Of a stretch of DNA of 64,000 nucleotides, positions 840-14,885 are shown piece by piece. The DNA comes from an uncultured Lentisphaerota bacterium. GTDB lineage: Bacteria; Verrucomicrobiota; Kiritimatiellia; RFP12; UBA1067. The position numbers and the translations under genes are program-made. Within the stretch, counting starts at the first letter, position 1, and every line of letters begins with the position of its first letter. Location: NCBI GenBank assembly GCA_946413265.1, contig CAMKJU010000007.1, positions 296 to 64,295 on the forward strand, given 5' to 3'. The notes beneath the pieces are model-generated. The model saw only the letters and a list, made by a program, of their open reading frames with translations. It ran no database searches and was not told the DNA's origin.

Positions 840-941
840 TTGCTTTCGCTATTGGGAGGTTAGGAGATTGGGAGACTTGGAGAAAATCTTCAAAAAGGCT
901 CACTAACTCCAAGACTCCGAAACTCCAAATAGCGAAAGCAA
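840..941 (+). repeat. about 100-nt imperfect hairpin element, copy 1 (GGAG/CTCC periodic arms)
   Basis: 5' arm TTGCTTTCGCTATTGGGAGGTTAGGAGATTGGGAGACTTGGAG. 3' arm CTCCAAGACTCCGAAACTCCAAATAGCGAAAGCAA. A second copy sits at 5684-5776 in the same orientation relative to local transcription. Confidence 0.8.
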
Positions 942-993
942 TGAACGTGCGTCAATGGTAGAGAGGTTTTGCAATTGCATCAGGAGACAACTC

Positions 994-2889
994 ATGGAAA
1001 AGAAGTCTATCAAGAAAAACATTCTAATCTCTTATTTCGGATACGAGCATGACCAGCTTGAATACAAGATGCAAGACAGGACATTCCTCGCCTCGTTCGG
1101 AAAAGACGCCAAGGCGAAGGGGTATCTCTCGCGCCTGAGTCCGAAAGACATCAAACGGACTGACATCTGGCGGCCTTCTGTCGCGCTCGCTTCCTACCCT
1201 GATCTGAAGTTCGACGATTACTATCTCCTCTACAGCGGCCTCAGGGGCCCCATGCGGAGAACCTTTGACGAGGTCGTAGAAGACATCAAGGCCCTACGGC
1301 CCAAGGTGAACCTGCACATAGAGGAGATGGCATTCAAATCGCCTTGGGACATGGTGAGCGTGTTCACGAACCTGTATAAGTTTGCCGAAGCCCATGCATC
1401 GGAATTCAGTGCAGAAGGTACCATGTGTTATGTGAACTGCAACCACGGCACAATGCAGATCAGAGAATCCCTTTTCATGCTCAGCCAGGAAGGCAAGATA
1501 CCCGGCATGCGAATATTGCCGTCCCCATGGCACGACAATACAAAACGCGACTATCGAACCCCGGTGGGAAGCTATGCGAAGGACGATCCGTCGGACTTCA
1601 ATGAAGCCTATCGCAAGTTGTCAATAGCCACGAAAAGGCAGGCTAAGAACAACGGGCTCATGGAGGGAATCTTCGTCGACAAGAGCAACACGGAATTCTT
1701 GGAGCTCCTCAACCAGATATTCTTCGTGGCGCAAAGAACAAAGGAACCGATACTCTTCACAGGCCCCACAGGTAGCGGGAAGTCGAACCTCGCCAGGAAC
1801 ATAGCAAAAACAAAGGGATTGAAAGACAAATTCGTATCCGTCAACTGCGCGACATTGGGTGGTGACCCGGGAATCATCAAAAGCGAGCTATTTGGCCACG
1901 ACAGGGGCGACTTCACGGGCGCGATCAGCACGTGCGACGGAAAACTGCAACAGGCCAACGGGGGGATTCTCTTCCTCGACGAGATTGCCGAGCTTCCCCT
2001 CGACTCCCAGGCGATGCTCCTGACGGCCATCGAAACCAAGAAGTTTAGGCGTCCGCATTCGACGGTGGACATACAATGCGACTTCATGCTCATCTGCGGC
2101 ACCAACAAGGATCTGTGGGAAGAAGTCAAGGCCAAGCGGTTCCGCCTGGATCTGCTGGAACGCATCAATACCTGGCATTTCCACCTCCCCGGCCTCGCGG
2201 AAAAAGAACGCCCCGGCTATGCCGCAAGACGGAAAGACATCGCCCTCAATTGCCAGCAAGTATTGAGTGAGTACAATAAAAAGTATTCCTCGCATCTTGA
2301 ATTTGCAAACGACGCATTACAACGTTTCATCGAATATGCAGAAGCCGACACCACCGAGTGGAAAGGCAACTTCCGGGAGTTCAACGCCATGATCTTCAGG
2401 ATGGCGACATTCGCAAACGGTCTTCAGATTGAGCTGAAAGGCGTCGAAAAGGAAATCGAACGCACCGAGTTTGAACTAAAATCATACAAGACCGACAGCA
2501 ACGTTACGGCAATAGCGACCGATGCCCCTCCTGCGGCAACGAAACAAGAGGAATTTCCAACCGCGTCGCAAACCATTAATACGCCCGACCCAACCTCTCC
2601 CCTTCCCGACGCATCCTGCAAATTCGAGTTCCTGCGCGAACTGCTTGGCGAGAAGTACGCCGAGCTCCGCCTGGACGAACTCGCCCAACTTGCCTTCGTC
2701 GCCTCGGTCTGCGCGGACGCGAAGAACCAGGCGGACGCCAGCCGGCGCCTCCGCATCAACCAGAGTGACGCAAAGGACGGTTCCCCACAGCTCTTCAAGT
2801 ACCTGTACCATTTGGGTTTGAACTTCGACAAGGTCAAGTCCTTTGCGCGCGGGTTCAAGCCCTCTGATTCGTCTCAAGTGCGCAGATAG
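994..2889 (+). CDS. rtcR: RtcR-family sigma-54-dependent transcriptional regulator (CARF-like N-domain + AAA+ + C-terminal HTH)
   Basis: AGGAGA RBS 7 nt before the ATG at 994. The N-domain matches the E. coli RtcR pattern (WRPSV..., SPWDMVSVF, NCNHGTMQI). AAA+ Walker A GPTGSGKS, Walker B GGILFLDEI, sigma-54 contact loop GDFTGA (nt 1906-1923). The C-terminal segments WKGNFREFNAMIFRMATFA and ...LFKYLYHLGLNFDKV parallel RtcR WRGNFRELSASVTRMATFA and ...LRKYLARFGLTWEAV. Confidence 0.75.
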   Translation: MEKKSIKKNILISYFGYEHDQLEYKMQDRTFLASFGKDAKAKGYLSRLSPKDIKRTDIWRPSVALASYPDLKFDDYYLLYSGLRGPMRRTFDEVVEDIKALRPKVNLHIEEMAFKSPWDMVSVFTNLYKFAEAHASEFSAEGTMCYVNCNHGTMQIRESLFMLSQEGKIPGMRILPSPWHDNTKRDYRTPVGSYAKDDPSDFNEAYRKLSIATKRQAKNNGLMEGIFVDKSNTEFLELLNQIFFVAQRTKEPILFTGPTGSGKSNLARNIAKTKGLKDKFVSVNCATLGGDPGIIKSELFGHDRGDFTGAISTCDGKLQQANGGILFLDEIAELPLDSQAMLLTAIETKKFRRPHSTVDIQCDFMLICGTNKDLWEEVKAKRFRLDLLERINTWHFHLPGLAEKERPGYAARRKDIALNCQQVLSEYNKKYSSHLEFANDALQRFIEYAEADTTEWKGNFREFNAMIFRMATFANGLQIELKGVEKEIERTEFELKSYKTDSNVTAIATDAPPAATKQEEFPTASQTINTPDPTSPLPDASCKFEFLRELLGEKYAELRLDELAQLAFVASVCADAKNQADASRRLRINQSDAKDGSPQLFKYLYHLGLNFDKVKSFARGFKPSDSSQVRR

Positions 2890-4517
2890 TAGCGCGCGTC
2901 GCCCTTCGATGTTGCACCGAATGGGTGATAGAGTGCCGGACGGAGGCGGGGCAACACATCCGCCAGACATTCATCCGCCGCATGCAGCACCTCCTCAATC
3001 TGCGTCCCGCGTCGGTACTTGTTCGAGGCCTCGTTGTAGCCGAAGTAATCCATCAGCATGGCCAATTCGCCCGGCTTCGGTTCACGACCGTCCGCCGAGA
3101 GCCGGAGGAGTACCATTCCCCGCAGGAGCTCTATGGCAAGCCGCCGGTGCGACAGCGTGTGCCGCCAAATCTGGTCGACGCATACACGCAGATTGACCGA
3201 AAGGGCCGGAACCACCCGGTCGCCGTCACGCAGGAAACAGGAAATCGCCGTCACCCGATCAAGGCTCGTGCCGAAGCCCTTGTTGAGATGGATGGCACAG
3301 GGGGCGGGAACGCCGTCCCAGCAGACCGCATGCGCCGCCTCACGGAAGCGCGCAAGCGCGTCGTAGATGCCTCCGAACTCAGCGTAATACGATTTCTCCT
3401 CGTTCTCGGCCCGCTCAAGGCGCTCGAGCTTACGCGCGAACTTCAGAGGTGCGACCCTCGCCGCACGCCGGAACTCGCTTTTCCGCGCCGCACGATCATT
3501 TTTCTCACGCGCATCCATCCGACGAAGCGTCTCCTTCAGCGTCTGTTCAATCGCCTCCGTGCCGTCCGTCAGCGCCAACCAGCACCCCTGCTGCCACCGG
3601 AAGGCGTTGCGTGGGGGCGCCACGCGCTCGAAGAGGTAGCTCGAATTCGCGCTCTGCACGATGTTGCAGGCCGCCTTCCCGGGGGCGCGACGCAGACCGC
3701 GTCCGCACATCTGGATTGTCGGCAGACGCGAGGCGTCGCGCGCGAAGATGCTTGATACGTCGGGCTGGTCGAATCCCTCCGTGAGCATCGCCACGTTCGC
3801 GACCACCTGCACGCGGCCGCTCGCAAAGGCATCGATCTGGCTCTCCTTGTCGCTCTCGCCCGTCACCACCTCGCACGCCACGCCGCCTGCGGCGAGGCGT
3901 TCGCGAAACGCCACACATTCGGCAATCGTCGAGAAGAACACGAGGCTTTTCCCCCAGCGCTTGGGGTCCGCCAGGTAGAAATCCGCAGCCGTGGCCACGC
4001 TGTAGTTCGGAATGACGTATGTATTGAACGGGCTAAGGTACCCTTCCCGCACGAGGCGGCCGATGGAACACGTGCGCACCGTCTCCTGGAAGGAGAGCTT
4101 CATGCGGTCCGTCCGCATGGGCGTGGCCGAGAGGCCGATCGTCCACCTGGCGCGCATCCGCTCGTAGAGGAGCACGCAGCTCTGTGTCGCCTCATGGTGG
4201 GCCTCGTCGAGGACGACGAGATCCACCTCCGGCGGTACCTTCTCGAAAAGCGAGACGGGGCGGATGTTATCCTGGTAGAGGTCCCGGTTCGCCTCCATCA
4301 TCTGGCGCAGCAGATGATGGCGCGGCGCCACCCAGCCGACCTTGATTGGACGCCCCAGATGCTCCTGGAAACGATGGATCACCTCCAGGGCCATGTACGT
4401 CTTACCCGAGCCGACAGGCGATTCAAGCAGGACGGAGGTGCGTCCCCGTTCCGCGAACGCGGCCAGCGCCTCCTTGATAGCCTCCTGCTGGTAGGGTCTC
4501 TCTTCGTAACGCGTCAC
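2874..4517 (-). CDS. SF2 DEAD/DEAH-box helicase (ResIII + helicase C) with a C-terminal extension of about 230 aa of unknown function
   Basis: GTG start 1 nt after the stop of the upstream gene (TAAgGTG). Motif I SPVGSGKT, motif II VLDEAHH, motif III GLSATP, motif VI QMCGRGLRR. The N-terminal 51 codons of track ORF 2874..4670 are R/S/T-rich overlap and were discarded. Confidence 0.8.
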   Translation of the reverse strand: MTRYEERPYQQEAIKEALAAFAERGRTSVLLESPVGSGKTYMALEVIHRFQEHLGRPIKVGWVAPRHHLLRQMMEANRDLYQDNIRPVSLFEKVPPEVDLVVLDEAHHEATQSCVLLYERMRARWTIGLSATPMRTDRMKLSFQETVRTCSIGRLVREGYLSPFNTYVIPNYSVATAADFYLADPKRWGKSLVFFSTIAECVAFRERLAAGGVACEVVTGESDKESQIDAFASGRVQVVANVAMLTEGFDQPDVSSIFARDASRLPTIQMCGRGLRRAPGKAACNIVQSANSSYLFERVAPPRNAFRWQQGCWLALTDGTEAIEQTLKETLRRMDAREKNDRAARKSEFRRAARVAPLKFARKLERLERAENEEKSYYAEFGGIYDALARFREAAHAVCWDGVPAPCAIHLNKGFGTSLDRVTAISCFLRDGDRVVPALSVNLRVCVDQIWRHTLSHRRLAIELLRGMVLLRLSADGREPKPGELAMLMDYFGYNEASNKYRRGTQIEEVLHAADECLADVLPRLRPALYHPFGATSKGDARYYLRT

Positions 4518-4518
4518 C

Positions 4519-5604
4519 TTACGCGGCCTCCTGCGAGAAGTTGATGCCGCCGAGGTAGAAGTTGCTGGTCCGGACCGCGTTCGGATAGAGGTCCTCGAGG
4601 TCGAAGTCCTTGGACAGCACCGTCCCCGCGAAGGAATGGAGCGTGGATTCGGGCTTGAGCAGCTCCGCATGGTGCGAGGCGAGCTCCGAGGCGAAGTTGA
4701 GGAGGTCGGCCACGCTGCACCCCACGGGCAGGAGCGGACGCTTCTTCTGTCCGATGTTCGTGAGGTCCGTCACGCCGTAGCGTACGCACGGGTTATCGGC
4801 GATTTCGTTCAGCCGCTCGCGGAGGAGCATCTGGTTGCGCGTGTTCGCCACCGAACGGCGGATCAGCCCATCCAGCAGCAAGACCTCGCCCACCGACGCC
4901 TTCGTGCCGGCCGCGGTGCACATGCGTTCCTGCAGCATCTCGACGCCGGACGGGTTGCTGAAGGACGCCAGCAGGCGACGGAAATGCTCGCCGCTGTTGT
5001 CCTTGATTTCCATCTTCGTGCGGAACAGCGGCGCCTCCGCCACTGCGCCGTTCGAGCAAATCTGCCGCCATGTGGCGAGACTCATGTCGGGCATGCCCAC
5101 GCCGTCCACGGGTACGCGACAACGCACGCGCACGTGGTAGGTGCTGTCGTTCGGCACGTCCCACGGGTCGTCGAGGTCGAGCATCGCGCTCAGCATGCCG
5201 TTGCCATATTCGACCTCCTGCAGGCGGCGGTCCTCGTGCAGGACGCCCTCAATGAATTTCACGGGCATGGGCAGGCCCTTGTCCTGCGTCAGACCCAGTG
5301 CCTGGTTCCGTTCCGTATCGACCGTCACGCGGAGCGCCAGATCGGACTCCTTCTCGGCCGCGCGCGTCATCACCTCTAGCGGTGTGAAGAACCCGAACAC
5401 GCCAAAGGGAATCCCCAGTTCGGCGGCAAGGGTCTTGTAGAACCGGTCGCTCAGTTTGTAAGTTGTCTGCCCGATAGAAAGACCTTTAATCTTCTCATCG
5501 TCGCAGTCCAGAGCCTCCACCATACGGCGAGGCGTAATGGGAATCGGCTCAAAACGATCGCCGATTCGCGAATTCATGTCGATTTTTTCTGTTTTTACTG
5601 CCAT
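4519..5604 (-). CDS. DUF932-like (phage/plasmid-like) protein
   Basis: ATG at 5604 with GGAG upstream; the track ORF begins at a TTG at 5655. The segment HVRVRCRVPVDGVGMPDMSLATWRQICSNGAV resembles the DUF932 core (R-x-[IV]-C-x-N-G) as I recall it. Translationally coupled to the helicase. Confidence 0.45.
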   Translation of the reverse strand: MAVKTEKIDMNSRIGDRFEPIPITPRRMVEALDCDDEKIKGLSIGQTTYKLSDRFYKTLAAELGIPFGVFGFFTPLEVMTRAAEKESDLALRVTVDTERNQALGLTQDKGLPMPVKFIEGVLHEDRRLQEVEYGNGMLSAMLDLDDPWDVPNDSTYHVRVRCRVPVDGVGMPDMSLATWRQICSNGAVAEAPLFRTKMEIKDNSGEHFRRLLASFSNPSGVEMLQERMCTAAGTKASVGEVLLLDGLIRRSVANTRNQMLLRERLNEIADNPCVRYGVTDLTNIGQKKRPLLPVGCSVADLLNFASELASHHAELLKPESTLHSFAGTVLSKDFDLEDLYPNAVRTSNFYLGGINFSQEAA

Positions 5605-5683
5605 GGCTTTATAATCTCCATAAACAGAAACCGTATGCACAGCACTATCTTTCAAGTTTTCTGAATTTTTTTGAATAAGTTTA

Positions 5684-5776
5684 TTGCTTTCGCTATTGGG
5701 AGTTTTGGAGTCTTGGAGTTTTCTTTAAATACTCTCCTTAACTCCGAAACTCCTAATCTCCCAATAGCGAAAGCAA
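5684..5776 (-). repeat. about 95-nt imperfect hairpin element, copy 2
   Basis: On the minus strand it reads TTGCTTTCGCTATTGGGAGATTAGGAGTTTCGGAGTT...AACTCCAAGACTCCAAAACTCCCAATAGCGAAAGCAA. It is collinear with copy 1 and lies between the sigma-54-like gene and the DUF932-like gene. Confidence 0.8.
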
Positions 5777-5797
5777 GAAAGGTTTTGTAACTGGTTC

Positions 5798-6559
5798 TTA
5801 GGTGAAAACGCTGGCCAAAGGTAGCGAAGCATATCCCCATGACAGACGACAATTCTGGCAATAGGCGTGGATATTCCCCGTGTCTGCCTTTTTCGACGTT
5901 TCTGCCTTCTTAGAACGAAAGTTGGCGCAGAAATCTGACGTAACAAAGCCCGTCTGCGTCATTGTTTTGTGATTCTCTCTAAACGCCGCCGGACTTTCAA
6001 GGGCCTCATCCCCTTCACTCTGCAGCCACTTCGCCACAGCCTCGTAGAACGCAAACTGCTTGCGAACGGCTTCAAGAATCTTGTGTGCCTCCGAATCAAA
6101 ACCATTTGGGCGATATCCCAACAGCGGGTTGCGGGGCGGAATACACGCCCATCGCCCCGATGCCGTCTCGACAATCCTGATCTCGTAGCCACGCAGAATG
6201 GAATCTAGCGGTGATGCCTCCTCGCCGTTCGGTGCCGCATACGCGCCAGAAGAATCGTCCTCATCCCGGATTTCGTCGTCATCAATGAAATCCACCTCCG
6301 AGTCGTAATCCTCCTCGGCAGCATCCGCAATTTCAGTAAAAACTTCTTCTTCCACGTCAGTCTCGACAACGATCTGGAAACTGGCGATCATCGCCTGCAA
6401 AATCTGTACTTGAGTGGCACAATCCGCGCGCAAAAACGTCGATGCCTGTATCCGTGTGGACAGTTCGACCTTGGCTTCCAGCTCATGTCTGGTGGAGACG
6501 TCCATTCGATTGGACTGCTGCATGATTGTCGCCATCTGCAATCCATAACCTAAAGCCAT
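5798..6559 (-). CDS. acidic 253-aa protein, possible divergent or truncated sigma-54 (RpoN)-like factor
   Basis: ATG 2 nt after the RNAP stop (TGActATG). Q/L-rich N-terminus, an acidic tract EEEVFTEIADAAEEDYDSEVDFIDDDEIRDEDD, then segments that by eye parallel sigma-54 region III up to but not including the RpoN box. The upstream part of track ORF 5798..6745 overlaps the RNAP gene and was discarded. Confidence 0.55.
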   Translation of the reverse strand: MALGYGLQMATIMQQSNRMDVSTRHELEAKVELSTRIQASTFLRADCATQVQILQAMIASFQIVVETDVEEEVFTEIADAAEEDYDSEVDFIDDDEIRDEDDSSGAYAAPNGEEASPLDSILRGYEIRIVETASGRWACIPPRNPLLGYRPNGFDSEAHKILEAVRKQFAFYEAVAKWLQSEGDEALESPAAFRENHKTMTQTGFVTSDFCANFRSKKAETSKKADTGNIHAYCQNCRLSWGYASLPLASVFT

Positions 6560-6561
6560 AG

Positions 6562-9500
6562 TCACTCTCCCACTGCGAAACTGTTGAACATCACCTGCGC
6601 CGACGGCGAGGACAGCGGGATGTCCCGCATTTCGCCACTCAGTAATTTCAAGATCGTCTCCTTGTTTGCACGGCGCGCGACCGATTCCATGTCCTTGCCT
6701 TCGTCCACTTTCTTCAACGCGCCGTTGAGGGATTTTGTCCCGCAATCAGCGAGAACGCGCCACAAGAGCTGGACATGCCGCGGATCCAGATCACGGTACG
6801 GAGTTATCGCGCCGTCCTCCCCGCACAGACATTTGTAGAATTCATCGTATGTTTTAGCCTTCTTACCGCTCAGGATGAGCGCGCGCACGAACTCGATGTC
6901 CACTTGGCTCTTCCCCGCATGGGCGCTCTTCATCGAAAGTTGCGTGCCGCGTTCGCCGATCGACTGCGCGGCGATCAATCCCGCCGGATACCCAACTTCT
7001 GGCAAAGTGCCGTCCGACAAAGCCCCGTAGCACGCCGCGCAGATGCCAGTTTCGCAACCACAGTTGAGTATCGAACGCTTGCCGCCATCCGGTGTCTTGC
7101 ACTTCTTGCACGTAATCGTCACTGGACGCAGGGCATAGACAAGACAACGCGTGAGATCGCCCGCCTTGCCGGTGTTGAGCTTCTTGTCGCACATCGAAGC
7201 GCGAGCGTTGAACGACGACCAGAAGATGTCCTCCCACGACATGCCGCCGACGAGCGAGCCCTGAATATCGAATTTCCGTTTCACCTCTTCGGACGGCACA
7301 AACCCCAGCTTGCCGGTCGCAAGTAGACCGCGAGGATTCGTGAACTGTTTGATCTGCTTTGCACCATTTGCCCCTGAGTTGACCATATCCGCCGCGAAAC
7401 CGTTTTTCCCGTCATACACCACAAGGTCGTAGTAACCGAACGAGACGCCCTCTTCCGTACATTTCGCGAACGCCGCACGCGCATCCTTCAAGACGGATTC
7501 GGCTTCGCCCTGTTTACAATGCTCTTCCAATCGCTTCTTCGCGGCACCGGAATCGCGCGCGCAGACGAGATATGCGCCCATCACGAAGTCTCGGTCGTAA
7601 TTCGGGGTGATCTGTCCGTTCCCCGCCGAAAAGAGATTCGCGGACGGCGCCAGACGCGGCAGCGCCTCCTGTGCAGCGTCGGAAAGCGGCAGGTAACCAG
7701 CCATCTCGTCGCCGTCAAAATCGGCCCCGAACCCCTTGCATGAAAGCGGCTGCAAACGGAATACCTCGCCGTCTGCGGGCTTCAGGACCTTTACCTTGAA
7801 GGTCTGCATGCTGTATTTGTGAAGAGACGGCTGACGGTTCATGAGCATCCAAAGCGGATGTTTTTCCAGGTACTCCTTCAGCGCATCCCATTTCTCTGTG
7901 AGCCGTTTTTTCGAGCTTTCCTTAGGCGAGCGCCAGCCGAACCCCGCTGCCGTCACACCATGCGCCGTCACACGCAGGTCCACGCTCTGTGGCTTCCCTT
8001 CGACCTTGATCCGCTCATCGGTGACGCGGTCCGCCAGAAGCTCCCAGAGGATGGACGCCGGAACGCCGACCTCGTCGAACGCGAGATCCGGCCCCGGCGT
8101 GATCACCATACGACACGAACGGTCCACGCGCCGCCCTAGTCCCTCCCGCCTCACGAGCCCGTGTTTCCCGCAGCACGCATCACGCAAAACCTGAAACACG
8201 GTCGCGACAGCCTTCTCGATCTGCGTCAACGCCTTCGCCTTGTCTTCTTCCTTCGCCTTGGCATACCGGTCGCACGCGGCGACAATCTCCCCGTACCCGA
8301 ACGGATCTACCTCGCCTTCGTATCCCACGCGGTACCTGATCGGCAGGACGGGGACGTAGCGCAACTTCGGCTGGTCGTGCAAGTTCTTGCCCGTCAATGC
8401 TTTCGCGGGATAGTCGATCGGCTCCGGCAATTCGATCACGCCCCACTTTTCTTCTTCAGCGCACACGAATGCCTCGTTAAGCGAACCGAACATCGCCGGA
8501 TCGCACACGCCTCCTTCGGCCATCTCGTTTTGCTCATTTGCAGCCTTGAGAAGGAACCGCTCGCCCGGCTTACTCGCACTACACAATTCGCACGGACACA
8601 GCACGAGCGCGTCTCCGATGCTTTCCGCCTGCTTGTCCGACGTCTTGAGGCACATCCTCCGAAGTACCTCGCCCGCATTCACCTTCCTTTTGATGAAACA
8701 ACGCACATCGCCCACGCCGTCAATGCCAAGTGCAGAAGTCTTCACCTCCAACGACAAAGTTGTGGCCGAGCCCCCTTTTGTTCCCCAAATCGGCAGTACC
8801 TCTAGGCAATCCTCCCGACTGGGACAACGGGCGTCTCGCCCGTTGCAGGCACCCGAAACGCGCATCCAATAATTGCCATTGCTTTCTTCCAGCGGTCCCT
8901 TGATCGTTACGCCAAAAAGTGACAGCAACGACGCAAGGCTCAGCGTATTCCGCTTGTCGCCCCCATTCCACGTAAAACGCATTCCACCGAACGCAAGCCG
9001 TGCGGAATCCTTCGGACAGCGGAACTGTGCCGAATGGACCGCCACCGCAGACGCCTTTCCGATTGTCCGACCCTTGCGATCCTGTTCCTCCTTGAGGCCA
9101 ATCCGTTTGAGCAGTTCGTTATCCGACATCCGCGAAAACGACACTGTCTTCTTTTTCGCGTTGACATCCATCCTGATCAGCATGGCCGCAAGATAGGCGG
9201 ACAGGACTTGGGAAAATCCAGTCTGGTCGAGTGCGGGCTTGCCCGTCCCCTTGACGGCGACGGCATCGGAGTTGCGAAGAAGGTCCGCGATGATCGGTTC
9301 CGATCCGGGATAGGCCGAAAGCGCCCACATTTCCATTTCGCCCACGCGCTGTCCGCCGCCAATGAGCCGCCCGTGCGCGGCCTGTCCCGTGGCGCAGGAA
9401 TACAATGCGTCCTTCCCGCCACGACGCGCCTGCGCTTTCAACGCGGGGATGTGGTGGAGGCGGAAGAAATGCTGGTACCCCACCACGACGGGCGATGCCG

Positions 9501-11523
9501 TTGTAACCTTGCGTCCGTCGGGCAGCGTCCAGTGCAGATATGCCTTGCCATATTCGTCGAGTCCCGTCTCTTTGAGCAGACGCTGGACCTTCTCGTGGTC
9601 GAGCGCGCCGCAACATGGCGCACCCGCCGGTCCGGACGCCCCGTCCTTCAGCACGTCCGCATCTGTCTTTCCGTTGTGGAACAACCATCCCAAATGAGTC
9701 TCCAGCAGCTGACCGGGGTTCATGCGCGAGAGGACGCCATGCGGGTTCAAGAGAATGTCAACCGTCACTGTCATGCCATCGGGAAGCTTCAGTTTCGGCA
9801 TTTCCTTCGCAGGCAACACCTTGGAGACGACGCCCTTGTTGCCGTGGCGTCCCATCAACTTGTCACCCGGCTCTAGGGCGAACGTGCGCGCAATGCGGTA
9901 CTCCAGGCGGCCTACGAATCCCGGATCGCGGTTGAGCGGCTTCTCCTTGATTTCAGGCGGGTATTCAATCTGCACGAGCTTCGCGGGGGCGGCGTCGAAA
10001 TACCGGATCGTATGGGTCTGTTCCTTGCCGTTCGCAATCTTCTTGAATTCCGCAATGGCCGTACCCTCACGCAGAGGTGCCCCCGCCGAGAGGATTTTGG
10101 TACACGTCCAGCCCGGATCAATGTCGAGCGCGTAGTCCTTCTCTTCAGTAACGGCCATTTCTTTCACGATTGCGTCGCTCACCACGACCGCGTCGTCGAG
10201 GTTCCAGCCATACCAGGGGATGTACGCGACAAGCAGGTCGCGACCGATCTTCAGCTCGCCGCCGTCCGAGCATGTCGGACACAACCCCGCGCGCTCCAGC
10301 GGGCGCATGAATTCAACAAGCCCCTCTTCGCCGCCAGACATCACGCGCGGCGCTTCCGCCCCGCTCACGGGCACGCCCTGGCGCATGTTCTTCGCGCCCA
10401 TCATGCTGCGCGCGTCGTCGTTGTGGTTCAGGAACGGAATCAGCGACGTGCACCAGCTCACAGGCGGCCGCGATGGTAGGGCCGCCTCGCCGAGGCGGCC
10501 GCTCTTCGCATTAATCTGTCCCTTCGCATCCACCCACGCCCCACGCGCGAGTTGTAGTTGGATGCCCACCATCTCGGACTCGGGGCTCTCGATCGGGCAG
10601 ATTCGTCCTTCAAACGAGGGATGGTTCTGCCGGAATTCGGCGGGCAGGAACCCAACGTGGCTTCGGCTCATCTTGAAGCGCTTGATGCCGCAGATGCGTC
10701 CAGCCGCCTCAAGAATGTTGTCCGGACGGATGACGTCAAACCCGTTGAATCGCCGTTCACCGATCGACGAAATAGGCACAAGCTCCGCAGCCAAATCACT
10801 CCAGCTATCTCGCGTTCCATTCTTCAAGACAAAGAAACGATAGTAGAGTCGAAGAAGGCGATTGCGCAGCCAAACCGGAAACGTCACCGCCATGCGGTGG
10901 TCCAAGTCATCGGCATCAAATGTTTCTATCTTGTCCTGATTCGCCTGCGCCCATTCCTTCAGATCCAAGTTCAGATCTTGCAGCGATGTGGCAAGGCCGC
11001 CCCGGCCTTGCAGCAAGGGCGAGGGCGCCCTTGCCACACCGGGCTTTCCAACCACCTCATTTGCCCACCAATGGGCGAAGGCTATTTCGTACCGGTCAGA
11101 CTTTGAGAGCTTTTCGTCACCGATGCGGATGAAGCGTCCGTCCGGCAACCCCAGACGAAGCTCCAGCTCCTTGCCATTGGGCACGCGCACCTTGCGCAGA
11201 CCCGGCATCTCGCCGAGCCAGGAGCTCCAGACAAGACGCTGGGGCGCGTCCTTGTTTTCGGCGCCGGCGCCGCGCGTCACGAATATGCCATGGTACGGGA
11301 GGGGAATGTCAAACTCTTGCGTGTCGCCGTCCGTAAAGGATATGCAGAACCGCCCCGTGAGGTCCAAGTTCTTCGCATACGCGAATTTCGCATCTTCAGC
11401 AGCGGGGAGGATGAGACTGACCTCATCCACCTCCGACGACACATTCCTGACGCATTCCGTAGCAGAGTTATTCCACGATTCAAGCGTCTCCGCATCGTCG
11501 TCTTTGAACATCAGCCAATTCAT
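6562..11523 (-). CDS. single-chain fused beta-beta' multisubunit-type RNA polymerase (compact, 1653 aa)
   Basis: Beta motifs: GRICPIESPESEMVG, SLIPFLNHNDDARSMMGAKNMRQGVP, GDKLMGRHGNKGVVSK, VDILLNPHGVLSRMNPGQLLETHLG, GGGQRVGEMEMWAL. These are followed by beta' motifs: GRRVDRSCRMVITPGP, NRQPSLHKYSMQ, catalytic GADFDGDEMA (nt 7699-7728), and AAQSIGERGTQLSMKSAH. ATG at 11523; the track uses a TTG at 11529. Confidence 0.9.
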   Translation of the reverse strand: MNWLMFKDDDAETLESWNNSATECVRNVSSEVDEVSLILPAAEDAKFAYAKNLDLTGRFCISFTDGDTQEFDIPLPYHGIFVTRGAGAENKDAPQRLVWSSWLGEMPGLRKVRVPNGKELELRLGLPDGRFIRIGDEKLSKSDRYEIAFAHWWANEVVGKPGVARAPSPLLQGRGGLATSLQDLNLDLKEWAQANQDKIETFDADDLDHRMAVTFPVWLRNRLLRLYYRFFVLKNGTRDSWSDLAAELVPISSIGERRFNGFDVIRPDNILEAAGRICGIKRFKMSRSHVGFLPAEFRQNHPSFEGRICPIESPESEMVGIQLQLARGAWVDAKGQINAKSGRLGEAALPSRPPVSWCTSLIPFLNHNDDARSMMGAKNMRQGVPVSGAEAPRVMSGGEEGLVEFMRPLERAGLCPTCSDGGELKIGRDLLVAYIPWYGWNLDDAVVVSDAIVKEMAVTEEKDYALDIDPGWTCTKILSAGAPLREGTAIAEFKKIANGKEQTHTIRYFDAAPAKLVQIEYPPEIKEKPLNRDPGFVGRLEYRIARTFALEPGDKLMGRHGNKGVVSKVLPAKEMPKLKLPDGMTVTVDILLNPHGVLSRMNPGQLLETHLGWLFHNGKTDADVLKDGASGPAGAPCCGALDHEKVQRLLKETGLDEYGKAYLHWTLPDGRKVTTASPVVVGYQHFFRLHHIPALKAQARRGGKDALYSCATGQAAHGRLIGGGQRVGEMEMWALSAYPGSEPIIADLLRNSDAVAVKGTGKPALDQTGFSQVLSAYLAAMLIRMDVNAKKKTVSFSRMSDNELLKRIGLKEEQDRKGRTIGKASAVAVHSAQFRCPKDSARLAFGGMRFTWNGGDKRNTLSLASLLSLFGVTIKGPLEESNGNYWMRVSGACNGRDARCPSREDCLEVLPIWGTKGGSATTLSLEVKTSALGIDGVGDVRCFIKRKVNAGEVLRRMCLKTSDKQAESIGDALVLCPCELCSASKPGERFLLKAANEQNEMAEGGVCDPAMFGSLNEAFVCAEEEKWGVIELPEPIDYPAKALTGKNLHDQPKLRYVPVLPIRYRVGYEGEVDPFGYGEIVAACDRYAKAKEEDKAKALTQIEKAVATVFQVLRDACCGKHGLVRREGLGRRVDRSCRMVITPGPDLAFDEVGVPASILWELLADRVTDERIKVEGKPQSVDLRVTAHGVTAAGFGWRSPKESSKKRLTEKWDALKEYLEKHPLWMLMNRQPSLHKYSMQTFKVKVLKPADGEVFRLQPLSCKGFGADFDGDEMAGYLPLSDAAQEALPRLAPSANLFSAGNGQITPNYDRDFVMGAYLVCARDSGAAKKRLEEHCKQGEAESVLKDARAAFAKCTEEGVSFGYYDLVVYDGKNGFAADMVNSGANGAKQIKQFTNPRGLLATGKLGFVPSEEVKRKFDIQGSLVGGMSWEDIFWSSFNARASMCDKKLNTGKAGDLTRCLVYALRPVTITCKKCKTPDGGKRSILNCGCETGICAACYGALSDGTLPEVGYPAGLIAAQSIGERGTQLSMKSAHAGKSQVDIEFVRALILSGKKAKTYDEFYKCLCGEDGAITPYRDLDPRHVQLLWRVLADCGTKSLNGALKKVDEGKDMESVARRANKETILKLLSGEMRDIPLSSPSAQVMFNSFAVGE

Positions 11524-11525
11524 GA

Positions 11526-12776
11526 TCAAATCCGTGTCAGCAGTTGGAGCGAACCTACTATTGCACCGAGAACGAAGCCCAGCACCTGGACGGCACAGAG
11601 ATTTTCGGACATGAACTCGTCAAGCGTCTGGTGAAATGTCGCGATGGACATGCCGTCAACAGCTTCCGTGACGCGCTGTTCAAGCCGGAGCTTGTCAAGA
11701 ATCGCCTGCTTGTTCTCGCCGATGAGCTGGGCGACCTTCACGCCGACCTTTGGCAGCACTCCCTTCTCAAGCTTTTCGCGCAGCATGTCAGAGGCGAATG
11801 CACGGTCGATGAGCACGGGAACATTCTCGCGGAGATACGTAGCAATGTAACGCTTGCCGCGCACCCTCATCTCACGGATAATTCCGCCCATCACCTTCTG
11901 TCCCTCTTCGCCTTTCATCCACAGAGTGAGCTGGTCCGCGTATGCGAGAAGCTTCTCCCTCAACATCGTCTGAGTTGCCTCGCGCACCAGCCATCCGTCC
12001 AGCTTGGCCTTCATGCTCTCATAATCGGCAAAGTTTTCCATGACATAGTCCGTAATCGCATTCGCGCCTATGCCAAACGGGATCTTCTCGTTCAGTTTCT
12101 GCCGTAGGAAGGTGCGCAATTCACCGCGCACCTCCTCGATGATTCCGCCCGCGTTTTCACGAAGTGCCTCAACCAGCTTTTCAACTATGAACCGCCGGGA
12201 TCCCTCGCTTTTGATTCGCGGCAGGATTCCCTCGTTCCATATCTTCGACCAGGTATCATCCGTTGCCAGACTGTCAATGACGGCAAGGACCTGACGTTCC
12301 ACGTACGGCGACACGAACTCGACGATCTCGGCTTCATGCTCAACAAGATACCGTTGAATCCAGTCGCGGAGCTGAGTCATCCGCCGCGTGTCGTTCACAA
12401 ACGCCAGCACCTCACCCTTCATCTCCTCGACGAGCGCATCAGGATTCAGAAGTTTCTTCCCGACCATGTTGCCGAGCGAGACGGCCATTTCGCGTTTCTG
12501 CCTCGGGATAATCCCCTGGATGCGTCCGCCAAGATGTGGCTCGTACGGTCTGAACAGATACCAAAGCGCCAGCCAGTTCGTAATGTATCCGACGGCTCCC
12601 GCAAGCAATATCGGCATAAACCAGCCAAGATACCGGTCAATACCCGCCGCCGTCTCCACAGAAATCAGCAGCCGCGCCACCACATATACGACCTCCAGGC
12701 CCAGCACTATCCAGCTGAACCGGTTAAAAAACCTATCCCATGTTTTCCACGCATCCATTTTACTTTTCGTCTTCAT
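11526..12776 (-). CDS. DUF445/UPF0754-family membrane protein
   Basis: GAVGYITNWLALWYLFRPYEPHLGGRIQGIIPRQKREMAVSLGNMV matches the YheB/UPF0754 signature as I recall it. There are N- and C-terminal TM segments. The stop TGA lies 2 nt before the RNAP ATG. The start was chosen at MKTKSK with an AGAGGAAG RBS. Confidence 0.65.
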   Translation of the reverse strand: MKTKSKMDAWKTWDRFFNRFSWIVLGLEVVYVVARLLISVETAAGIDRYLGWFMPILLAGAVGYITNWLALWYLFRPYEPHLGGRIQGIIPRQKREMAVSLGNMVGKKLLNPDALVEEMKGEVLAFVNDTRRMTQLRDWIQRYLVEHEAEIVEFVSPYVERQVLAVIDSLATDDTWSKIWNEGILPRIKSEGSRRFIVEKLVEALRENAGGIIEEVRGELRTFLRQKLNEKIPFGIGANAITDYVMENFADYESMKAKLDGWLVREATQTMLREKLLAYADQLTLWMKGEEGQKVMGGIIREMRVRGKRYIATYLRENVPVLIDRAFASDMLREKLEKGVLPKVGVKVAQLIGENKQAILDKLRLEQRVTEAVDGMSIATFHQTLDEFMSENLCAVQVLGFVLGAIVGSLQLLTRI

Positions 12777-12817
12777 GTTCTTCCTCTTGTGCCACCTTGC
12801 CAAAGCGCAACGCCGAC

Positions 12818-12826
12818 AGTATAGCA
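12818..12826 (-). promoter_or_regulatory. extended -10 promoter candidate (TGCTATACT) for the DUF445-RNAP operon
   Basis: Minus strand TTTTGCTATACT, about 35 nt upstream of the ATG at 12776. The same motif precedes aroE and the DJ-1 gene. Confidence 0.4.
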
Positions 12827-12868
12827 AAAATCGGCTGGCTCATGGGGAGTTTTTCGGCCCGGAAATCT

Positions 12869-13048: not shown

Positions 13049-13200
13049 TTCTTAACTTCCTTTCTCGGACAATTTTCACAACCCTCAAAAACAATAAACG
13101 CTACAGATGCGACAAACTCGCATCTGCACAAAAAAAACACGGAAGATTTATCCGCGCACCATAGCAGAATTCTGGCTGGGGCGAACCGAGTGCGCCTCAC

Positions 13201-13260
13201 GGTAGGGCGCGATCACCGAGCGCGCCGGAATTGCGGGCCGCCCGGTGGTCGGCCCCTACC
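13201..13260. repeat. REP-like GC-rich palindromic element pair
   Basis: GGTAGGGCGCGATCACCGAGCGCGCCG gaatt GCGGGCCGCCCGGTGGTCGGCCCCTACC. Both arm types recur at 26753-26816, and a related arm at 27978-28006. Confidence 0.75.
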
Positions 13261-13284
13261 GGTGCATAAGCGCCATGCTGGATA

Positions 13285-13938
13285 TCACAGCATGCGCAAA
13301 AACGCTTCGCGGCTTGACATCGCCTCTTCCAATTTTCCGGTCCTGCAGAGCGAGACGTAAAACGCCGCAGCAGCAGCCTGGCAGTTGATCTGTCTGTTCG
13401 GATTGAACTCGATGTCAGTGAATGCGTCGAATTCCCTCAGCTCCTCGGCCAGCTTCGGATTGGCGAGCAGCGCCTTGATGTAGAGATGATAGAAGAATGC
13501 CGTCTTCGGCTCGAGATCCCACCGGACTCCATCAAGTTCGAAGGCGAGAAGGCGATGTCCGGCGGACGCTTCCTGGACATGGTGGCCATGGTGGCGGACT
13601 TCACGCGAATCGTGGGAGTAGAGTTCCGGGAACGGGCCAACCCCGCCGTCGAACACCTTGCTCGCCTGAAACACCGACTCCACGGAGCACTCGACTCCGC
13701 CGTGCGGAAACTTCAGGTTGAAGGCGCTCAAACTCACGCCGAGCGGCTGCAGCGACTTGCTTGAAATCTCAAGCACCTTCGCCGACGGATCGATCCTGTG
13801 GATGGCGTCGTGCAGGGCAACGACGTTTTTCTGCTTCTGCGAAAAAGCGAATCCAGGATGCCAAGTGAACTCAGGAGACTCCACGGTCCTGTATCCGACA
13901 TATCTCTCCAACGGTCTGTAACAAGGTCTTTTCGCCAT
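13285..13938 (-). CDS. conserved-looking hypothetical protein (217 aa), function unknown
   Basis: AAGGAA RBS before the ATG at 13938. Non-repetitive sequence with motifs FTWHPGFAFSQKQKNVVALH, SVESVFQASKVF and FTDIEFNPNRQINCQAAAA. I cannot assign a family. Confidence 0.6.
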   Translation of the reverse strand: MAKRPCYRPLERYVGYRTVESPEFTWHPGFAFSQKQKNVVALHDAIHRIDPSAKVLEISSKSLQPLGVSLSAFNLKFPHGGVECSVESVFQASKVFDGGVGPFPELYSHDSREVRHHGHHVQEASAGHRLLAFELDGVRWDLEPKTAFFYHLYIKALLANPKLAEELREFDAFTDIEFNPNRQINCQAAAAAFYVSLCRTGKLEEAMSSREAFLRML

Positions 13939-13992
13939 ACTGTTTTCCTTTCTTTTGTTGTTTGTTCTTGTTGCCTCTGTCAATATTAAACA

Positions 13993-14459
13993 TCAAGGTG
14001 TCGTATTTCTTTCACAGGCGTTGAACATCTGCCAGAGGTTGTTCGCGAGCTGCATGAGCAGGTAGAAGTTCCTGCTGCACCGCCAGTGGTTGCAGAACAC
14101 GTGCTCAAGCCCGTAGTCGTTGTTCTTCTCGACGTCGAAGCTCGACTCAACGTTCCACCTGCGCCGCCCCCATTCCACGACCTCCGACGCCACCTCCGGG
14201 CAGCCGACGTCGTAGTTCGTGGCGAACATCCCGCGGCATGTCCCCCCTTCGTCTCCTCGCAGGCGACGACGTTGAACTCCTCGCCTTCGGACTGGGTCGT
14301 GAACTTCACTCCGCCCGTCCACGCCACGACGCCGGTCTCGGTCTTCCGCTGGTTCTCGCCCCTCGCGACGAGAGGCCCGCAGCAGCCCTTCGAGACCTCC
14401 ATCGAGTCGCACGCCATCTCGTACGCGTCCGGGGAGCGTCCCTCCTTCGGGGAAGTCAA
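13993..14459 (-). pseudogene. IS4/IS701-type DDE transposase remnant (C-terminal fragment, frameshifted)
   Basis: ...EVVEWGRRRWNVESSFDVEKNNDYGLEHVFCNHWRCSRNFYLLMQLANNLWQMF is a typical DDE_Tnp C-terminus. The upstream part continues in another frame (track ORFs 13993..14412 and 13986..14459). No N-terminal half and no inverted repeats were seen. Confidence 0.6.
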
Positions 14460-14481
14460 GGGGAAATGTGAAATAAGTCAG

Positions 14482-14519
14482 AAAAAAATATCGGGCGGCC
14501 CCCGCAGGATGGCCGCCCG
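14482..14519 (-). terminator. rho-independent terminator-like hairpin
   Basis: CGGGCGGCC-n10-GGCCGCCCG followed on the minus strand by TATTTTTTTC. No convincing minus-strand gene lies upstream of it, so its role is unclear. Confidence 0.3.
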
Positions 14520-14885
14520 AACCGCTCCAGGAACCGTCGCGCCAGCAAAACTTCAGCGCGAAAATCTAATCATTTGGAATCCTTGGGGAGTCGGAATGGT
14601 GTGTCATGTCAGAAATCACCTGCTTTTACGTGGGGCACATCTCCTCAACGCCGAGCCTTCTGATGATTGGAAACAACTATTTGAAACAACTTGCCTTTGG
14701 CGCGCGGGCTAACTCGCCCGCGCCCATTTGCCGATCCTCAAACTACCACAATTCTGAATGTTCAAGGTGCGCCCGCAGGATAATGTTGTTCTTGAAAGTT
14801 GTCATGGTTGCTTCCAAATACGTATGGGTAAAAACGCATGCGCCCTTTTGCGTGGGATATCGTGCTTGATGCAATTAATGGATTA

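Follow-up and report, generated by a model that had tools for sequence, protein, structure and literature searches.

A putative sigma-54-derived partner protein encoded directly behind a fused beta-beta' RNA polymerase in an uncultured Lentisphaerota bacterium

To our knowledge, sigma-54 (RpoN) has been treated as a single, unsplit family that has no known paralogues and is tied to the canonical bacterial core enzyme. In the sigma-54 holoenzyme, the cleft of the RNA polymerase (RNAP) is blocked by region I together with the extra-long helix (ELH), and the acidic region II sits in the DNA and RNA paths; the ELH-helix-turn-helix (ELH-HTH) unit recognizes the -12 region and subsequently holds the bubble, and the L1 loops of bacterial enhancer-binding proteins (bEBPs) pull region I away with ATP (PMC7057263). 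Jumbo phages have reduced beta/beta'-type polymerases that are made initiation-competent by a small extra protein such as phiKZ gp68 or AR9 gp226, the latter described as formally equivalent to sigma factors (PMC7598289). Here, we analyze a locus on a 64,000-nt stretch of DNA from an uncultured Lentisphaerota bacterium (assembly GCA_946413265.1, contig CAMKJU010000007.1, positions 296 to 64,295; hereafter the window), in which the gene of a 253-aa acidic protein, the target of this study, directly follows that of a fused RNAP. The pair and a candidate activator are located as follows.

5798..6559, minus strand: target gene, encoding a 253-aa acidic protein (open reading frame (ORF), 2-nt spacing to the RNAP stop, Shine-Dalgarno motif, family of 220-350-aa proteins)
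6562..11529, minus strand: fused beta-beta' RNA polymerase, 1655 aa (Pfam, NCBIfam, alignment with homologues)
955..2889, plus strand: RtcR-like CARF-AAA+-HTH ATPase, 644 aa, candidate activator (Pfam RtcR and Sigma54_activat; NCBIfam; PADLOC)

Like sigma-54, the target presents N-terminal helices, a poorly conserved acidic tract, a hairpin, a long helix, an HTH and a second hairpin in that order. The profile similarity to sigma-54 starts at E. coli residue 259 and reaches about 404, or 457 in the long forms of the family, and the family travels with AAA+ proteins that bear the Sigma-54 interaction domain. Unlike sigma-54, the target is half-size, has no core-binding domain or RpoN box, shows no recognizable region I and has no Pfam or NCBIfam match; it is paired in the same operon with a 1655-aa single-chain RNAP, whereas sigma-54 serves an alpha2-beta-beta'-omega core. 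The RtcR/sigma-54/rtcBA system shares with the locus an RtcR-type CARF-AAA+-HTH protein with a GAFTGA-like loop in the neighborhood. Here, however, the flanking proteins examined contain no match to the rtcA or rtcB families (Pfam, NCBIfam), no -24/-12 promoter is present, the neighbors are a helicase, an unknown protein and the RNAP with its partner, and other lineages of the module use non-CARF ATPases without an HTH. The fused rpoBC proteins of Helicobacter and Wolbachia also carry beta and beta' in one polypeptide and are the best NCBIfam matches of the 1655-aa RNAP, but they are full-size housekeeping enzymes of about 2840-2890 aa, against 1655 aa with its own partner here; the window enzyme falls far short of their cutoffs and has DFDGDEM where bacteria have DFDGDQM. 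By analogy, the closest functional counterparts of the partner appear to be the sigma-unrelated fifth subunits of jumbo-phage RNAPs (PMC7598289), although gp68 and gp226 are phage proteins with neither sigma similarity nor an ATPase activator, whereas the module described here is bacterial-chromosomal and shows sigma-54-type similarity.

We lean, by a narrow preference, toward reading the target as a dedicated, sigma-54-derived and cut-down specificity and gating subunit of an orthogonal fused RNAP that is activated by a bEBP-like ATPase. The partner protein itself is best described as a sigma-54-derived mini-factor.

The target ORF encodes 253 aa plus the stop, with its ATG at 6559 and the RNAP TGA at 6562-6564, which leaves 2 nt between the two translationally coupled genes; a Shine-Dalgarno-like GGAGAG lies within the 3' end of the RNAP gene, ahead of the target start. 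An earlier note on this DNA, made from the sequence alone, had reported this 2-nt spacing, and it had also quoted several peptide strings, all of which are present in the translation, and described a strongly acidic tract, which is borne out by the composition given below. The protein has a pI of 4.5, with D+E = 43 vs K+R = 23, and finds no match in Pfam, NCBIfam, PADLOC or PHROGs. A chance reading frame was rejected because at least 76 conserved homologues exist. The product can be divided as follows, with the help of AlphaFold2 (AF2) models, their predicted local distance difference test (pLDDT) values and HHalign profile-profile comparison.

6365..6559, minus strand: N-terminal region, aa 1-65, with a variable start followed by conserved helices (IQASTFLRADCATQVQILQAMIA) (AF2 helices 22-59, conservation)
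6206..6364, minus strand: acidic tract, aa 66-118, predicted disordered (23 D/E and 1 K/R in 53 aa; pLDDT <50)
6134..6187, minus strand: beta-hairpin YEIRIVETASGRWACIPP, aa 125-142 (AF2 strands 126-133 and 136-140; aligned with sigma-54 PDVLVRKHNGHWTVELN by greedy HHalign)
5801..6091, minus strand: predicted ELH, helix-turn-helix and hairpin-like domain, aa 157-253 (HHalign vs E. coli sigma-54 325-404; AF2)

The coupling of the partner gene to the fused RNAP is firm and constant. Eleven contigs offered enough sequence for this comparison (the window, L001/L002, L003/L004, L015, L017, L096, L097, L178, L179 and L180), and in 11/11 a family gene lies directly behind a fused RNAP of 1623-1973 aa, the two genes overlapping by up to 4 nt or being separated by up to 30 nt. 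RNAP identity to the window enzyme falls to 34-39% in the distant loci measured (L015, L017). The genes upstream of the RNAP vary by lineage, so the conserved unit is the RNAP-partner pair. The earlier note had named the lack of this gene in RNAP homologues as a result that would speak against its proposal; all fused-RNAP homologues examined carry the partner gene.

The family to which the target belongs is, as far as the searches of protein collections indicate, rare and self-contained. A search of 5.8 billion proteins yielded 76 relatives of 230-260 aa, all of them unannotated, and the few that are named come from Kiritimatiellae metagenome-assembled genomes (MAGs). A profile search (A1) of 1.84 billion cluster representatives returned 50 clusters only (50% identity), all of 220-350 aa and none of sigma-54 length. 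No relatives of the module were found among viral contigs (IMG/VR), and an alignment-based homologue search that included the distant members gave 6 matches only, being swamped by acidic low-complexity words. Conserved blocks run through the family: an N-terminal helix pair, the acidic D.E.D..D(D/E)D, the hairpin YEI+V...G.W.C.PP, the long helix R...Y..IA.WLE and the C-terminal FSRYIRN.RLSW..GSIPL..LF, which in the target subfamily reads NIHAYCQNCRLSW..ASLPL.SVF. The acidic motif falls within the acidic tract, a segment similar to sigma-54 region II in both its position and its composition; D93 and D95 of the tract do not vary in the broad family. A long form, 331-353 aa in length, extends ~90 residues past the final LF. 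A hidden Markov model (HMM) built from the A4 alignment, without the long forms, matches these over their full length at 60-100 bits, which indicates that the three subgroups are one family. Homology of the extension to the RpoN box is unsupported: with GITVPRTRQGKRAL placed opposite GIMVARRTVAKYR, it scores 11.9 vs 10.5 +/- 1.9 for shuffles.

The link to sigma-54 comes from profile-profile comparison. A first sigma-54 alignment (A3) held eight sequences, from E. coli and from plasmid-borne rpoN genes; a larger profile of 80 sequences adds 72 metagenomic proteins with 31-44% identity to Bacillus thuringiensis sigma-54, the first sequence of the scan. Against the eight-sequence alignment, the broad family (A4) gave an HHalign probability of 31% (P=5e-4, score 35.3, 86 columns) and the distant members alone gave 55% (P=1.2e-4, score 39.5, 85 columns). 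When 56 family sequences were compared with the 80 sigma-54 sequences, the probability rose to 87.8% (P=3.3e-6, score 53.4) over 162 columns that pair P0123 113-305 with E. coli sigma-54 259-457, a stretch that covers the PDV hairpin, the ELH and the HTH. The same 56 sequences against the ELH-HTH sub-region alone gave 81.5% (P=1.1e-5, score 38.9, 81 columns). For comparison, the reversed family scored 24.9, block shuffles 16.4 +/- 2.0 (maximum 22.9) and real decoy families (AAA+ proteins, RNAPs) 13-24. Three further comparisons fall in the same register, each weak alone: the long forms (P=0.04-0.08), P0115 (P=0.05) and the hairpin/linker (P=0.012). In this register LEAVRKQFAFYEAVAKWL pairs with the ELH and YCQNCRLSWGYASLPLASVF with KYLHSPRGIFELKYFF, and a greedy HHalign setting places YEIRIVE..GRWACIPP opposite PDVLVRKHNGHWTVELN. 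The C-terminal half of the target had been aligned with sigma-54 by eye in the earlier note, and the profile comparison recovers that alignment in the same register, with a family probability of 82-88% and P of 3e-6 to 1e-5. These data support homology between the family and sigma-54 over the ELH-HTH.

For the target itself, residues 157-253 pair with E. coli sigma-54 325-404, such that the protein ends at the equivalent of S404. The conserved helix Arg of the family is aligned with sigma-54 R336, which is invariant in the eight-sequence alignment; R336 is an ELH residue whose mutation bypasses the activator (PMC7057263). The target subfamily has Q168 at this position and an Arg (R165) one helical turn earlier. 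AF2 predicts a 26-residue helix at target 156-181 (pLDDT 85-94), exactly at the position of the sigma-54 ELH, and a terminal hairpin where sigma-54 carries KYL..GIFEL. The C-terminal domain is confident in the model of the full-length target and less confident when modeled alone. The HTH-hairpin block is the best conserved part of the family. As a separate observation, the Kiritimatiellae subfamily that includes the target has Cys/His residues that are invariant or near-invariant at C139, H197, C211, C234 and C237, and its CxxC occupies the exact site of FSRYIRN in the distant members, which is aligned with the HTH recognition helix of sigma-54. This Cys/His set may form a zinc site in place of the recognition helix.

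The polymerase is a single 1655-aa chain in which Rpb2 domains 3, 6 and 7 precede Rpb1 domains 2 and 5, and its scores with the housekeeping models for rpoB, rpoC and fused rpoBC are far under the NCBIfam cutoffs; these two observations identify it as a reduced fused beta-beta' polymerase. It retains the catalytic GADFDGDEM (residues about 1266-1276) and the beta motif GRHGNKGV. We note that the Glu of GADFDGDEM is as in archaeal and eukaryotic RNAPs, where bacterial RNAPs have Gln. Because of this DFDGDEM pattern, a scan of genome contigs with the RNAP alignment returned mostly archaeal RNAPs, and only L016 and L017 were relevant loci.

The third component is an ATPase with a Sigma54_activat domain, found beside or near the pair in 9/11 contigs from three deeply diverged lineages, and a three-gene association of RNAP, partner and ATPase is supported by this distribution. 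In L017 (a Verrucomicrobiales MAG), L096 and L097, the long-form lineage, the ATPase gene overlaps the partner stop, is translationally coupled to the partner gene and is followed by an NYN RNase gene; these long-form ATPases stop at the AAA+ lid, without a DNA-binding domain. In L015, a Sigma54_activat ATPase is the next gene, on the other strand. The Kiritimatiellae group (the window, L003/L004, L178, L179 and L180) has an RtcR-like ATPase 3-9 kb from the pair, with an unknown 360-aa protein and a ResIII helicase lying between the pair and the RtcR-like gene. The 644-aa RtcR-like ATPase of the window spans the RtcR models almost end to end; it matches PADLOC RtcR--CARF_AAA_HTH at 2e-112 and reaches 386 bits with NCBIfam RtcR, below the 650-bit cutoff. 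Its L1 loop, at residue 318, is GDFTGA, a form shared with L180, and L178 and L179 have NAFSGA. The distant and long-form loci have aromatic GAFTGA-like loops (GAYTGA, GAYTGG, GNYTGG and GAYTDG); a Tyr in place of Phe in this loop occurs in a minority of genuine bEBPs (PMC7057263).

Retained in the family are a helical segment at the N-terminus, a disordered tract rich in acidic residues, and a block of hairpin, ELH and HTH, and the order of helices, acidic tract and folded domain is that of sigma-54 regions I, II and III (PMC7057263). We infer an initiation-factor role for the partner, along with binding to the RNAP, promoter specificity, dependence on the ATPase and a set of transcribed genes. 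In such a mechanism, translational coupling would have the partner made stoichiometrically with the RNAP; the partner would bind the fused enzyme and direct it to a small set of promoters, and the complex would stay closed until a bEBP-type AAA+ ATPase remodels it, as in the sigma-54 holoenzyme. In this genome the candidate activator would be the RtcR-like protein, sensing through its CARF domain. The outcome would be an orthogonal, signal-gated transcription unit alongside the host RNAP.

A broader proposal, which we put forward tentatively and rate at slightly under an even chance, is that PVC (Planctomycetes-Verrucomicrobia-Chlamydiae) bacteria, here Kiritimatiellae and Verrucomicrobiales, possess a complete second enhancer-dependent system. 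Its parts would be a minimal two-barrel RNAP in a single chain, a sigma-54-derived mini-factor that lacks the core-binding and -24 domains, and a dedicated AAA+ activator, which is gated by CARF in this genome; the system would be set among conflict- or defense-type genes and would fire on signal only. A literature search, in which not all journals were covered, turned up no account of a module that joins a fused RNAP to a sigma-54-like partner and a bEBP-like ATPase. If the proposal is true, the module would provide the first family of sigma-54 paralogues, its RNAP would be the first non-canonical one with ATP-dependent activation of the sigma-54 type, and ATP-gated initiation would be portable to a different polymerase. 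A half-size relative would mark out the smallest core with which the sigma-54 mechanism works and offer a handle on the origin of sigma-54, and the three genes would make a compact orthogonal, inducible transcription system for engineering. With a CARF-type sensor and nuclease, NYN and helicase neighbors, the private RNAP might serve in a defense or stress response.

Several results weigh against a sigma-54-derived gating subunit. Direct searches for sigma-54, at the level of both sequence and fold, were all negative. The HMMER search against Sigma54_AID, CBD and DBD, proposed as a check in the earlier note, found nothing in 34 family members, Sigma54_AID being absent even at E<=10; Pfam on the same members gave no Sigma54 domain and chance acidic-tract matches only (HUN, DAPDH_C). 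An HMM of the 80 sigma-54 sequences, run against all family proteins, gave nothing significant and none above decoy level, BLASTP of the target against E. coli RpoN gave a nonsignificant E=0.95, and searches of the PDB by sequence and by profile were empty. Run with two AF2 models against the PDB (twice) and BFVD, Foldseek gave no significant match and did not retrieve sigma-54, and AF2 places no helix where the HTH recognition helix would fall, the site of the CxxC in this subfamily. The close subfamily of the target gives no HHalign signal when used alone, so its sigma-54 link is transitive, through distant relatives, and the 88% HHalign probability of the family is below the usual 95% comfort level. 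The likeness to region I that the earlier note had seen in the Q/L-rich N-terminus is not supported: the N-termini score 6.6 by HHalign against sigma-54 1-60, compared with a shuffle mean of 6.4, a value reached by 24/60 shuffles, and the N-terminal helices resemble region I in position and helical character only. The same note had seen no core-binding domain and an end before the RpoN box, and here it was correct. The core-binding domain has no Pfam match and its sub-profile gives P=0.65 by HHalign; between the acidic tract and the hairpin there are only ~20 residues, which leaves no room for a domain of about 130 aa. This domain is the main RNAP anchor of sigma-54, and binding to the RNAP would therefore need another interface. 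The RpoN box (ARRTVAKYR) and the -24 domain are absent, as the target ends at the S404 equivalent, before the RpoN domain. With three defining parts absent or unrecognizable, the protein stands outside the sigma-54 family as defined. The target could instead be a lineage-specific accessory RNAP subunit with no sigma-54 link, acting in assembly or stability, as an acidic DNA-mimic-like regulator or as a specificity factor of the gp68/gp226 type, and the profile similarity would then reflect convergence of a long amphipathic helix and an HTH-like motif. The firm coupling to the RNAP, the negative searches and the missing domains all suit this explanation, and non-canonical RNAPs are known to use specificity subunits without sigma similarity (PMC7598289). 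We nevertheless consider it unlikely, if worth keeping in view, as the HHalign score is 53 vs 13-25 in controls, the alignment is colinear over 162 columns, with several sub-profiles that share the register, and convergence leaves unexplained the Sigma54_activat ATPases with GAFTGA-like loops in the same operons.

The ATPase link has its own difficulties. What the earlier note had called an adjacent GDFTGA-bearing RtcR-like ATPase is indeed present, with that loop, and ATPases accompany the pair in three deep lineages, but adjacency did not stand: the gene is 3-9 kb off, on the strand opposite to the RNAP-partner pair in the window lineage, and in L001/L002 the surrounding 10 kb contain no AAA+ gene. 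The RtcR-like block of L178 is separated from the pair by genes for ribosomal proteins, and with housekeeping genes intervening, the RtcR-like neighborhood within Kiritimatiellae could be plain synteny; the L1 loop of L003 is degenerate (GFPNAN). There is also no canonical -24/-12 promoter at the locus: the pattern TGGCAC-N5-TTGCW with <=2 mismatches gave 15 matches vs 27 expected, none with <2 mismatches. The distance between the RtcR-like gene and the pair in L178, and its absence near L001/L002, would fit an ordinary DNA-binding regulator of the operon, HTH or zinc-binding, with the RtcR-like ATPase acting only via the canonical sigma-54 holoenzyme of the host and perhaps switching on the helicase and 378-aa defense-like genes or the RNAP operon. 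Weak winged-helix Foldseek matches (ArsR/MarR, E about 7) and the conserved Cys/His of the close subfamily point the same way. We hold such a regulator to be improbable: the canonical -24/-12 promoter was not found at the locus, a simple repressor is not expected to stay translationally coupled to a polymerase gene while RNAP identity falls as low as 34-39%, and the long-form ATPase has no DNA-binding domain and overlaps the partner stop codon. A sigma-54-like partner might also be mainly an inhibitor or lock, a plug on the polymerase that the ATPase removes, with no promoter recognition. The family keeps only the cleft-blocking parts of sigma-54 (RI/ELH) and an acidic RII-like tract (PMC7057263), and the short forms have lost the RpoN domain that reads -24; yet the HTH-hairpin block, which contacts -12 DNA in sigma-54, is what the family conserves best, and we give a pure plug very little credence.

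Around the pair lie the following further features.

840..941, no strand: palindromic element A, second copy of B (ends 14 nt before the RtcR-like start codon)
2874..4517 (listed ORF to 4670), minus strand: ResIII/DEAD superfamily-2 helicase, about 547 aa (Pfam, PADLOC, synteny)
4519..5655, minus strand: protein without family match, ORF 378 aa (synteny in L003, L178, L179 and L180)
5680..5780, no strand: palindromic element B (between the target stop and the 378-aa gene; candidate cis element)
11526..12827, minus strand: DUF445 membrane protein gene, overlapping the RNAP start (Pfam)

The product of the 378-aa ORF found nothing in Pfam, NCBIfam, PADLOC or PHROGs. Its homologues are 359-361 aa long, which suggests a true start at ATG 5604, and the gene is kept next to the module in Kiritimatiellae. 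The helicase, whose gene is convergent with the RtcR-like gene, has PbeA-like and restriction-helicase matches in PADLOC. The DUF445 gene is the upstream neighbor of the RNAP in the closest relatives only, with other genes in L001, L003 and L178, and is probably outside the module. Elsewhere, the window carries chromosomal housekeeping genes, e.g., SMC, gyrase/topoisomerase IV subunit A and Mfd.

The two palindromes are ~100 nt each, with 41-nt arms that consist of TTGCTTTCGCTA and four 8-nt GGAG repeats. Each copy is placed just upstream of one convergent unit, the RtcR-like gene for one and the 378-aa gene with the helicase for the other. The palindrome core occurs nowhere else in the 64 kb (0 expected). 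Its arms are kept at both sites in L180 (10774-11145 and 16004-16046), a relative with a 92%-identical partner; L003 and L179, which are more distant, lack these arms. The palindromes may function as sites for an activator or as promoter sites, or they may be copies of a small mobile element (miniature inverted-repeat transposable element, MITE). Scanning the spacer for sigma-70 promoters and terminators was uninformative, and Rfam gave sub-threshold miRNA-precursor matches only for the long hairpin. Other palindromes, GC-rich and of the form GTAGGG...CCCTAC, occur in intergenic spacers at window 13200-13261, L003 10780-10831 and L180 15882-15939, and are REP-like (repetitive extragenic palindromic).

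Upstream of the DUF445-RNAP unit, at a distance of 0.5 kb, is a gene for a DarT1-associated NADAR antitoxin (13285-13983, minus strand; Pfam 6e-71). The ORF beside it (14086-14712, plus strand) has no PADLOC match, so that a DarT toxin was not identified. In L003 (13684-15015), L178 (15721-16761) and L179 (11192-12523), the helicase and RtcR-like genes have between them a gene of the sigma-70 family (regions 2, 3 and 4), which is absent from the window and L180. Genes for TCAD9, CYTH-like, NYN RNase and Mrr-type nuclease proteins surround the core in L096 (1-4512 and 12435-13523), L097 (9437-10561) and L015 (4020-4895). Together with the restriction-type helicase, these NYN, TCAD9, CYTH and Mrr-type neighbors fit a conflict or stress context. 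Finally, the searches met two plasmid-borne hypothetical proteins, L013 412-1548 (Paracoccus pantotrophus plasmid NZ_CP058691.1) and hit H30 (P. versutus), with 25-30% identity to parts of E. coli sigma-54 (residues 124-468 and 329-468); these may be other divergent or truncated sigma-54 relatives.

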